From an uncultured Solirubrobacterales bacterium (GTDB lineage Bacteria > Actinomycetota > Thermoleophilia > Solirubrobacterales > Solirubrobacteraceae), in assembly GCA_963706395.1 (NCBI GenBank), contig OY970158.1, forward strand, positions 394,421 through 458,420: a DNA stretch of 64,000 nt. The letters run 5' to 3'. The position numbers were made by a program, and so were the translations under genes. Shown here piece after piece: positions 2,782 through 51,074 of the stretch. The stretch's first letter is position 1, and each line of letters begins with the position of its first letter. Under the pieces are notes generated by a model. That model saw only the letters and a list, made by a program, of their open reading frames with translations, was not told the DNA's origin and made no database searches.

Positions 2782-3456
2782 ATGCGCACCGCCGCGATCC
2801 TGCCCGTCAAGCACTTCGCTGTAGCCAAGCAGCGCCTGGGGGAAAGCGTGTCTGAGCCGCTCAGAGAAGATCTGGCACGAGCCATGGTGTGCGATGTACT
2901 CGATGCACTGCACGACACCCCATCGATCGAGCAGACGATCGTGGTGACGGGCGAGCAGTCCGTTGCTCTGCACGCGGACCAACAGGGAGCGATCGTGATC
3001 GGCGATACCGCCAACGACGGTCAGAGCGCCGCTGTGATGCTCGGCATAGAGCGTGCGTTGGCCCTGGGCATCGAACGGGTGCTGTGCGTACCCGGCGACT
3101 GCCCGGCGCTTGACCCCGGTGAGCTAGCGCAATTGCTTGGCGTCGTTGAAAATCAGCCCGAAGTGGTGATCGTCCCCGACCGTCACGGCACGGGTACCAA
3201 CGGCCTGCTGCTCGCCCCTCCAGACGTCATCTCCCCCAGCTTTGGGCTCGGCAGCTATGAGCGTCACCGTGCGCTCGCGGCCGCAGCCTCCTGGCGCATC
3301 GAGCGGCCGGCATCGCTGCTATTGGACATCGACACCGGCGAGGATCTCACCGCCCTGCGTGCGCGGCTCTCCGGAGAGCTCGTCAGAGCCCCTCGCACCC
3401 GCGCGGTGCTCGACTCGGCACAAGCGCCGTGGCCAGTCTTTTCGCCCGCGATATAA
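2782..3456 (+). CDS. cofC: Phosphoenolpyruvate/2-phospho-L-lactate guanylyltransferase (CofC/FbiD)
   Basis: ILPVK..AKQRL, PGDCP, PDRHGTGTN, LDIDT..DL. Confidence 0.93.
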   Translation: MRTAAILPVKHFAVAKQRLGESVSEPLREDLARAMVCDVLDALHDTPSIEQTIVVTGEQSVALHADQQGAIVIGDTANDGQSAAVMLGIERALALGIERVLCVPGDCPALDPGELAQLLGVVENQPEVVIVPDRHGTGTNGLLLAPPDVISPSFGLGSYERHRALAAAASWRIERPASLLLDIDTGEDLTALRARLSGELVRAPRTRAVLDSAQAPWPVFSPAI

Positions 3457-48025: not shown

Positions 48026-48192
48026 CGCCAGCGACAGAGAGCTCTTCGCCGGGGTCGCTGGACGAGCGTATGAAATCGCGCAGGACGTAAAGGAACCCGA
48101 GGAATGCCGCCGACGGCGGTCGGTCGCGATGGCGCCGCCGTGCAGCGCGTCGACTGGGACGAGCAGCTGAGCTATCCAGGCTGCTGGTGGAG

Positions 48193-48815
48193 CTAGTTAC
48201 TGGGGTGGCGTGCGACGTGCGCTAGTGAGCTGTGGCCGTTTTGGTGCTCGAAGGCGATCGGACCCGAGCCTTTCAGGACTGTGGCCATCGCAATCTCGGC
48301 CTCGTCGTACTCGAACCCACCCGGGATCTTGACCTGGATTGAGTAGTCGCTGGCTTCCTCACCCATCGACTGGATCGGCGCGGTAACGGTCTCGAGCGCA
48401 CCGCCGACCGCGCAGCGGGCGCGGCGGTTCTCAACATCGATGTCGATTTCGATGCCGGCGATCACCGGATCGTGGAACGTGTCGATGATCTCGGCGAGGA
48501 TGCCGTAGAAGGTGCCGCCGCTCTGACCGGAGAGGATCGCGCCCATGGCCTGCATCTGTTCGGGGGACATCGAGGCGTCGAGGATCGCCTGGCCTGCGCC
48601 ATGGCCTTCGTGCAGCGCGCCGGGCCACCAGTACTTGAACGCCCACTTGACGCCATCGAGGTGACGTGGTCGAAATGACCCCGCTCGACGATCATCGCCG
48701 CCATTCCCTCACAGTTGCCGTGCGTGGGGTCGGCGTTGAAGTCACACGGACAACCGGGGTCGCAGTTGCAGTTCTTCATGTACGGACCCTCGAGACGCCA
48801 GTCGGGCTGAGCCAT
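48193..48815 (-). pseudogene. DUF1326 protein, cut from its native start by the IS; also a 1-nt slip near 48660
   Basis: WRLEG.YMKNCNC..GCPC...GNC motif; native ATG and RBS lie on the far side of the IS (50117-50133). Confidence 0.75.
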
Positions 48816-48876
48816 CCTGGGTTTGACGGAGACTTTGATGCCAGGTTTTCCCTGGCGGAGGGAGAAGTCACCGAGC

Positions 48877-49179
48877 ATGCCAAGAGCGAGGAAGTATTCA
48901 CAGGAGCTGCTGGACCGCGGGGCGCGCCTCGTGTTCGAGTCAGGGCGCCCGATCGCGCACATCGCGAGAGATCTGGGCATCGAGTCTGAGACGCTGCGCA
49001 AACACGTGCGGCAGGTCGAAGCTGATGAGGGCCAGCGCAAAGACGTCTTGACCAGCCAGGAGCGGGAGGAGATTAAGGCGCTTCGCCGGGAGGTCTCCCA
49101 GCTGCGCCGGGCTAACGAGATCCTGAAGGCTGCCAGCGTGTTTTTCGCGGGCGAGCTCGATCCACACCGTCCGAAGTGA
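48877..49179 (+). CDS. IS3 transposase OrfA (HTH)
   Basis: RKYSQEL, IAHIARDLGI..ETLRKHV, ANEILKAASVFFAGELD; GTGA overlap with OrfB. Confidence 0.92.
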   Translation: MPRARKYSQELLDRGARLVFESGRPIAHIARDLGIESETLRKHVRQVEADEGQRKDVLTSQEREEIKALRREVSQLRRANEILKAASVFFAGELDPHRPK

Positions 49180-50066
49180 GCGCGTTCATCGAGGAGCACC
49201 GCGAGCGTTTCGGGGTCGAGCCGATCTGTGAGACCTTGGGCGTGTCGGCGTCCGCCTACTATCAGCGCGCCACCGGGCAACGCTCAGCCAGGGCCCGGGA
49301 GGATGAGCGGCTACTCGGCGTGATCGCAGAGCTACACGCGCGCAACTACTCCGCTTATGGCTCACGGCGGATGTGGAAGGCGCTGCTGCGCTCCGGCGAG
49401 CAGGTCGGGCGCAGCCGTGTGGAGCGCCTGATGCGTGAGAACGGGCTGCAGGGCGCCAAGCGTCGCGGCAAGCCATGGCGCACAACCCGGGCAGATCCCT
49501 CGGCGATGCGCAGCCCCGATCTGGTGCAGCGCGAGTTCGAGGCCTCCCGGCCAGATGAGCTGTGGTTCGCTGACTTCACCTATCTGCGCTGCTGGGAGGG
49601 CCTGGTGTTCTTCAGCTTCGTGATCGACGCCTACAGCCGCAAGATCGTCGGCTGGCAGTTCGCGCCACACATGCGCACGACGCTCGTCCTCGATGCATTG
49701 AGAATGGCACTGCACCAGCGAGCACCAGGCGCTGATGTCGAGCTGGTCCATCACAGCGACGCCGGCAGCCAATACACCTCGATCGACTACACCCAGACGC
49801 TTGAGGATCACAGGGTCCTCGGCTCGATCGGGTCGGTCGGTGATGCCTATGACAACGCCCGCGCCGAGAGCTTCGTCGACAGCTTCAAGACCGAGCTCAT
49901 CGCCGACCGCGTCTGGACCAGCAGATCACAGCTCGAGCTCGCCGTCGTTGAGTACGTCGCCTGGTTCAACAACACCCGCCTACACCAAGCCCTCCACGAC
50001 CGGCCGCCACGAGAGATCGAGGAACTCTACGCTGTGAAAGACGGGCCAATCACACCCACCAACTGA
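49176..50066 (+). CDS. IS3 transposase OrfB (DDE integrase core)
   Basis: YGSRRMW, DLVQREF, WFADFTY, HHSDAGSQY, YDNARAESF, WFNNTRLH. Confidence 0.95.
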   Translation: MSAFIEEHRERFGVEPICETLGVSASAYYQRATGQRSARAREDERLLGVIAELHARNYSAYGSRRMWKALLRSGEQVGRSRVERLMRENGLQGAKRRGKPWRTTRADPSAMRSPDLVQREFEASRPDELWFADFTYLRCWEGLVFFSFVIDAYSRKIVGWQFAPHMRTTLVLDALRMALHQRAPGADVELVHHSDAGSQYTSIDYTQTLEDHRVLGSIGSVGDAYDNARAESFVDSFKTELIADRVWTSRSQLELAVVEYVAWFNNTRLHQALHDRPPREIEELYAVKDGPITPTN

Positions 50067-50183
50067 ATGTTGGGAACCTACAAAAACGGTCTCCGTCAAA
50101 CCCAGGATGGCTCAGGCATAGCGTTGCCTCCTCGATAGCTTGGGTTGCCCGGCCGACATTATTGCGTTACGGTCGATCGCGCA

Positions 50184-51074
50184 ATGGCATCCGCCGTGCA
50201 ACGTCCCGCCGGCCAACATCCGGCTATGCGGTTTCAAGCCGGCATCCTCGCCTCGCTGCTCGGGCTGGCCGTCCTCGCCTGGCTTTTGACGCACGAACGA
50301 ATGCTCGGCATGGACGCCGGTCCAGGCACGGACCCCGGGAGTCTCGGCTTCTACGTGGTGTCGTGGGTCGTGATGATGAGCGCGATGATGTTTCCCTCGA
50401 TCGCGCCGATGGTGCTCGCGTTCGGCTTCGTCCAGCGCCGCCGGCGCGATCGCGGGTCGGTCGAGCGCGCCGTCTCCTCGTGGGTGTTCGTGGGCGGCTA
50501 TCTGCTGACCTGGACAGCGTTCGGGCTGGCCGCCTACGGCCTGTATGTGGGTGTGCGCTCGCTCTCGATTCCCGCGCTGTCGTGGCATCGCGGCGGTCCT
50601 TATCTCGCCGGAGGCGTGCTCCTCGGGGCGGCGATCTACCAGCTCACGCCCATCAAGGACGCCTGCCTGCGCCGCTGCCGCTCACCGCTTGACTTCGTGC
50701 TCACCCATTGGCGTGACGGGCCCTGGGGAGCGCTTCGCATGGGCGTCGTGCACGGCGGGTGGTGCGTGGGCTGTTGCTGGGGCTTGATGGCGGCGCTGTT
50801 CGCTCTCGGGGTGATGAGCCTGACCTGGATGCTCGCGATCGCCGGGCTGATCGCGGTCGAGAAGCTGCTGCCCTGGCGAGAGCTCGCCAACCGCCTAGTC
50901 GCCATCACATTGGTCGTGCTTGCTTTGGGTGTCTCGTTTGCGCCGCAGCACGTGCCGGGTCTTACGCTGCCCGACTCCTCGCAAGCCAAAGCGGCAATGC
51001 ACACGATGTCCGGGATGCACTCCGTCGGCGGTGCGATGCCAAGTCATCAAATGGCGCCGATGAAGCGGAAATAG
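50184..51074 (+). CDS. DUF2182 predicted metal-binding membrane protein
   Basis: WVVMMSAMMFPS, YQLTPIKDACLRRCRSP, CVGCCWGLM, EKL. Confidence 0.9.
   Translation: MASAVQRPAGQHPAMRFQAGILASLLGLAVLAWLLTHERMLGMDAGPGTDPGSLGFYVVSWVVMMSAMMFPSIAPMVLAFGFVQRRRRDRGSVERAVSSWVFVGGYLLTWTAFGLAAYGLYVGVRSLSIPALSWHRGGPYLAGGVLLGAAIYQLTPIKDACLRRCRSPLDFVLTHWRDGPWGALRMGVVHGGWCVGCCWGLMAALFALGVMSLTWMLAIAGLIAVEKLLPWRELANRLVAITLVVLALGVSFAPQHVPGLTLPDSSQAKAAMHTMSGMHSVGGAMPSHQMAPMKRK

Follow-up and report, generated by a model that had tools for sequence, protein, structure and literature searches.

Insertion sequences (IS) of the IS3 family, to which IS911, IS3, IS150 and IS51 belong, are elements of 1.3 kb having TG..CA ends and generating a target duplication of 3–5 bp upon insertion. 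They carry two genes, orfA (HTH) and orfB (DDE/rve), overlapping in the 0/-1 phase and joined by programmed -1 frameshifting, with A-AAA-AAG as the classical slippery motif. The family is well known, and so is the gene disruption brought about by its members. Ordinary insertional inactivation may be accompanied by incidental ORFs reading out of the element into the disrupted gene. Besides disrupting genes, IS can activate their neighbours by means of outward or hybrid promoters, and at least 26% of the IS3 elements are predicted to bear outward promoters (PMC12095673).

The element described here, an unnamed member of this family from an uncultured Solirubrobacterales genome, was found in a window of 64,000 nt (the whole stretch of DNA that was analysed), where it interrupts a gene of the DUF1326 family. 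The locus resembles the cases of activation by IS promoters (PMC12095673) in that an ORF adjoins the IS end and is read outward from it, and the IS was proposed to supply expression signals. However, it would be a start codon that is donated and not a promoter, neither a promoter nor a Shine-Dalgarno sequence is detectable, and the IS lies inside the gene instead of upstream of it. With ordinary insertional inactivation the locus shares an ATG in the terminal repeat giving an in-frame fusion to the disrupted gene, but here the fusion would restore a near-complete protein, because the IS sits after codon 1. Taken as a whole, the locus is most probably explained by an active IS3-family element that has recently inserted into an accessory DUF1326 gene and simply knocked it out, its in-frame ATG being incidental.

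Anatomy, copies and spread of the IS3-family element

The element is complete, 1,307 bp in length (48808–50114, plus strand), and was assigned to the IS3 family by the NCBIfam IS3 transposase model NF033516 and by the Pfam domains HTH_Tnp_1, HTH_21 and rve. It is bounded by inverted repeats of 26 nt, the right one (50089–50114, plus strand) being the perfect complement of the left one (48808–48833, plus strand; TGAGCCATCCTGGGTTTGACGGAGAC), whose complement bears the outward ATG discussed below. In having perfect repeats, with the same sequence at both ends, the element differs from the IS3-family members mentioned above. A repeat search returns 27 nt for the IS ends because the flanking C and G also pair. 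The termini are TG..CA, and a target-site duplication of 3 bp, GGC, within the 3–5 bp range of the family, flanks the IS as a direct repeat, with its left copy at 48805–48807 and its right copy at 50115–50117, the latter sharing bases with the native ATG (its G) and with codon 2 (its CC). The combination of perfect 26-nt repeats and target duplication is far beyond chance.

Inside the element, orfA (48838–49179, plus strand; HTH_Tnp_1; alternative starts at TTG 48823 and ATG 48877) spans the NF033516 profile positions 8–83, and orfB (49176–50066, plus strand; HTH_21 and the rve DDE integrase core), which is read in the -1 frame with respect to orfA, covers the positions 92–369 of 369. OrfB scored 307.8 bits against this model, whose cut-off is 160, and the PF00665 rve domain was recognized with E = 1.4e-20. 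The two genes overlap in the 0/-1 phase, and a U-rich heptamer, G-TTT-TTC, can be read at 49140–49146 within the overlap. It is likely a putative slippery site for -1 frameshifting, G-UUU-UUC differing from the classical A-AAA-AAG motif of the family.

The genome consists of one contig of 2.63 Mb, with a GC content of 66.5% and an estimated completeness of 93%. Counting of the IS copies, suggested by the original prediction, retrieved three full-length copies, 100% identical over 1,307 bp, and two related fragments. Owing to this complete identity the IS would be a young and active element and the insertion a recent one. The proposed recent origin of the insertion is thus borne out, also by the closest relatives, where the gene is uninterrupted. 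The two fragments (C1:1538313-1538967 and C1:2516154-2516271) are older and decayed relatives, which match the 3' part of the IS with 78% and 81% identity. As for the other full-length copies, the second one (C1:1691145-1692451) is flanked by a GCA duplication, and no target duplication was found around the third (C1:1821169-1822475). At this last locus, 31 bp of the left flank (AGCTAAGCAGCCAACGGGACTCCGGAACGAC) recur 50 bp past the right end, where they stand after a (GCAGTT)5 microsatellite, and a block of about 45 bp, TTAGGGTGGGGG.GGGAAGGCGGGTTAA.., is present on both sides, which suggests that the IS entered a repeat array or that the locus was rearranged afterwards.

The exact 26-nt repeat was also found in 20 loci of a species-genome collection, mostly MAGs of Solirubrobacterales/Solirubrobacteraceae, many of them from the 'MFD' long-read series, and in 91 metagenome loci. 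The 25 near-full-length relatives of the IS are 80.7–99.8% identical overall. The conservation of the exact repeat in relatives only 81–99.8% identical indicates that it is constrained as a transposase-binding site. Target duplications of 3 bp, as in the element studied here, were observed at six related copies elsewhere (L104, L111, L100, L033, L038 and L037), and one of 4 bp at a single locus. Two metagenome contigs (L109:10159-10236 and L120:6362-6439) contain a 78-bp element in which a 26-bp spacer is enclosed by the two 26-nt repeats, left and right, of the IS, and which looks like a MITE-like non-autonomous derivative.

The interrupted DUF1326 gene

The IS separates codon 1 from codon 2 in a small minus-strand gene of unknown function. 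The body of this gene, from codon 2 to the stop, covers positions 48193–48807 and contains a 1-nt deletion at 48662/48663. When read across this frame break, the sequence matches Pfam PF07040 (DUF1326) with 138.2 bits (cut-off 25) and with full-length coverage of the Pfam model. Its homologues, 205 aa in length and up to 94% identical, come from soil metagenomes, some being labelled Solirubrobacteraceae, and in their alignment C14, C16, C20 and C22, forming an N-terminal Cys motif (NCNCDPGCPCDF), are invariant. A search of the PDB with the DUF1326 sequence did not return any match, and a literature search on DUF1326/DUF2182 returned a single incidental mention.

The native translation signals of the gene have been left behind next to the right IS end (50117–50133, minus strand), namely the Shine-Dalgarno sequence GAGGAGG (50133–50127), a spacer of 7 nt and the ATG (50119–50117). 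From here the native start now reads into the right inverted repeat, giving an ORF of 7 codons (50096–50119, minus strand) that encodes MPEPSWV followed by a stop. Joining the two flanks with one GGC yields GAGGAGGCAACGCT ATG CCC GAC TGG, coding for MPDWRLEG..., and the resulting empty junction reads ...GCTATGCCCGACTGG.... The IS boundaries, the repeats, the GGC duplication, the stranded RBS and ATG and the restored MPDWRLEG start had all been described in the original prediction, and every one of its sequence statements and coordinates proved correct.

An empty site does exist in nature. The comparison was made with metagenome contigs; among 24 genomes of the same genus no close orthologue of the DUF1326 gene was found, suggesting that the gene is an accessory one. 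Contig L019, sharing 93.7% nucleotide identity with the window over 920 nt, reads gaggaggcagcgctATGcccgactgg at the corresponding position and shows the same GAGGAGG-7nt-ATG CCC GAC TGG arrangement. The DUF1326 orthologue is likewise uninterrupted in contig L020 (84% nucleotide identity), where the site is empty too and the SD-7nt-ATG arrangement is the same. In the genome carrying the insertion, DUF1326 is present at a single locus.

Upstream of the interrupted gene, a divergent and intact PpoB2/DUF2182 gene was identified by Pfam (PF09948; 50145–51074, plus strand). PpoB2/DUF2182 is a membrane protein, for which the Pfam annotation is copper chaperone. A PpoB2 gene (PF09948) is also the divergent upstream neighbour of DUF1326 in L020; in L019 the divergent neighbour, truncated where the contig stops, received no Pfam assignment, but its DNA aligns with the 5' region of PpoB2 in the window. 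No PpoB2 neighbour was found beside the distant DUF1326 paralogues (47% identity), so that the pairing of the two genes is supported for the close orthologues only. Such a gene arrangement fits a two-gene module for metal handling, of which the genome would keep only the membrane partner.

On these grounds, the following course of events may be proposed. In a soil Solirubrobacterales genome, the DUF1326 gene would have been hit by a young and active IS3-family element, whose transposition duplicated GGC and parted the promoter, the Shine-Dalgarno sequence and the ATG from the remaining coding sequence. The native start would now yield only a 7-residue peptide, stopping in the right inverted repeat, and would be followed by 1.3 kb of largely untranslated antisense IS RNA, for which polarity and poor transcription are generally to be expected. 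From the short peptide together with the polarity over the IS, we infer that the DUF1326 gene is inactivated and its expression lost. That an ATG of the conserved transposase-binding sequence lies in frame would be a coincidence with a chance of 1 in 3, and the ATG not a device for re-expression.

The frame break at 48662 and the state of the gene

The 1-nt slip near 48660 that had been pointed out in the original prediction is indeed present in the assembly, as a deletion at 48662. The window reads GGTG at 48660–48663, compared with GGTTG in L019, the closest relative, and the missing T, the sole gap in the 920-nt alignment, breaks the DUF1326 frame after codon 49. Were this deletion real, the gene would have been already dead before the arrival of the IS, or would have died soon after it, the IS having hit or helped to degrade a pseudogene and its ATG being irrelevant. 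We give this possibility somewhat less than an even chance. The deletion being the only gap relative to L019 argues for it, as does the lack of an orthologue in the same-genus relatives, with the accessory character of the gene that it suggests. In general, an IS insertion is tolerated more readily where the gene is dispensable or already dead. On the other side, apart from the deletion the gene shows only substitutions with respect to its relatives and is covered by the Pfam model in full length, and frame breaks of the same kind are frequent throughout the assembly.

Indeed, a 7-state codon HMM applied to the whole genome identified 662 ordinary same-strand gene boundaries and about 158 frame switches without a nearby stop codon, 13 of which fall in the window, with 10 of these clustered at 19.6–24.6 kb. 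One of the 13 is that of the DUF1326 site, which the HMM places at about 48652, and positions 3412, 32976 and 33375 of the window were noted as well. The HMM replaced a GC3 overlap census, by which 17 cases were found and this locus was missed. Among the broken genes are valS (C1:1323830-1325619), whose five pieces lie in frames 2, 3, 1, 2 and 1, and carB, having its C-terminus in another frame, as well as uvrC, pckG (GTP-dependent PEP carboxykinase), an ABC-F gene and an MMPL transporter gene. Most likely, the frame switches across the genome are indels of a long-read assembly. The relatives carrying the IS are Nanopore-only MAGs that underwent one round of Medaka polishing (PMC12313526), and the genome studied here is presumably of the same origin.

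With about 158 frame breaks in the assembly, the deletion at 48662 is indistinguishable from an assembly error, and the early caution that it might be a read error was well placed. As a rough estimate, the odds that the lesion is real and not an assembly error are about even, and for this reason the frameshift neither refutes nor supports a residual expression of the gene from the IS end. By the same token, single-base pseudogene calls are unreliable in this assembly, owing to its many frame breaks.

A further explanation concerns the population from which the genome derives. The IS-bearing allele might be one variant of a mixed population, picked by the consensus assembly, with the gene still intact in most cells. 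The genome does resemble a long-read metagenome assembly (a single contig of 2.6 Mb, 93% complete, with many indels), the relatives carrying the same IS are Nanopore MAGs (PMC12313526) and the IS is young, all of which would be in line with such a mixture. The clean 3-bp duplication, on the contrary, points to a real transposition, at least in the molecules that were sequenced, and we regard a predominantly intact population as unlikely. An insertional knockout is the reading that we prefer, also with respect to the start codon donated by the repeat, to which we now turn.

The start codon within the inverted repeat

When the left IS end is read outward on the minus strand, CCCAGG ATG GCT CA is followed, across the IS boundary, by G CCC GAC TGG, so that the repeat-borne ATG (48813–48815, read as 48815–48813) is in frame with codon 2 of DUF1326 and opens a MAQPDW... 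sequence, in agreement with the original prediction. Since both inverted repeats are identical, the same outward ATG would be donated in either orientation of the IS, and this part of the prediction holds as well. By chance, the repeat ATG would fall in frame in 1 of 3 cases. According to the alignment, the MAQ- product would keep all the conserved N-terminal residues, namely W4, G8 and the Cys motif.

It is conceivable that the IS has re-wired the gene, MAQPDW... being still made from the repeat ATG, either by read-through from the native promoter or from an outward promoter of the left IS end that escaped recognition. The ATG being in frame and its product near-native are in favour of this explanation, which we nevertheless regard as very improbable. 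Pairing of the 16S anti-Shine-Dalgarno sequence with the 21 nt that precede the repeat ATG amounts to -1.9 kcal/mol, a value equalled or bettered by 79% of random 21-mers from the genome, while the native site reaches -11.6 kcal/mol, in the top 1.6%. The sole purine run preceding the ATG, AGG, abuts it with zero spacing. Neither a ribosome-binding signal nor a leaderless transcript start was recognized at the ATG. Actinobacteria often translate mRNAs lacking a Shine-Dalgarno sequence, and this frequent mode of initiation counts on the side of rescue.

With regard to transcription, the 200 nt that lead up to the repeat ATG on the minus strand contain no -10-like motif (TANNNT), and no sigma-70-type promoter was predicted in the region 48100–50400 on either strand, although outward promoters are common among IS3 elements (PMC12095673). 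A search for intrinsic terminators on the minus strand of the IS gave no hit, which makes read-through from the native promoter conceivable. Downstream of the fusion point, the frame is broken at 48662 as assembled; were this break an assembly error, the obstacle would disappear.

If the repeats had been maintained as donors of start codons, in-frame fusions would be expected in excess at other insertions, and their count elsewhere had been proposed as a check. In a census of the IS clade covering about 104 unique ends with at least 150 nt of flank, 8–10 ends had an outward flank that was confidently co-directional coding. In only 2 of these 8–10, both belonging to this genome, did the repeat ATG share the frame of the flanking coding sequence, so that in-frame fusions are not enriched over the expected 1/3 (binomial p = 0.8–0.9). 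Flanks were classed by a GC3-phase classifier, as a strict codon-score classification was too conservative, leaving 101 of the 104 ends 'unclear' and missing the DUF1326 flank itself.

Both genic insertions of this genome are in frame, which has a chance of 1/9 and might be taken in support of rescue. The second one, on the other hand, is by necessity non-functional. Copy 2 interrupts a conserved DUF4236 gene of 384 codons, the break falling after about codon 239. The repeat ATG of this copy is in frame with the downstream fragment (MAH-AVPSV..., with AVPSV from the flank), comprising the last 145 of the 384 codons. Intact homologues of this gene are 355–417 aa in length, with up to 79% identity, and judged against them a fusion to the C-terminal fragment cannot restore the function. 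In-frame ATGs thus arise without functional meaning, and the only other in-frame case cannot be a rescue. A target-site motif was considered as the cause of the phase shared by the two insertions, given that the two duplicated sites are alike (CG-GNN-ATA), but it was discarded as the 25 related copies do not show any consensus.

Of the two outcomes originally envisaged, a knockout or a re-wiring under an IS-derived start, the former agrees with the empty site in the relatives, while the latter lacks a Shine-Dalgarno sequence, a promoter and an enrichment of in-frame fusions. The wider idea that the identical repeats of this clade act as portable start codons when the IS lands directly behind the start of a gene, with read-through from the native promoter over an IS lacking terminators and Shine-Dalgarno-independent initiation keeping a low level of near-native MAQPDW..., has only a very small chance of being right. 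Were it true, insertions very close to the 5' end of a gene would cause leaky mutations instead of null ones; likewise, a rescue at this locus would mean that insertions just after the start codon can be leaky, a matter of modest interest for the interpretation of IS mutagenesis.

Read as a knockout, the insertion by itself has little importance beyond annotation. For the organism, it would mean that the sole DUF1326 gene of the genome has been lost, with its conserved divergent partner PpoB2/DUF2182 left intact. For the IS3 family, the locus documents an element that appears to be currently active and is widespread in soil Solirubrobacterales.
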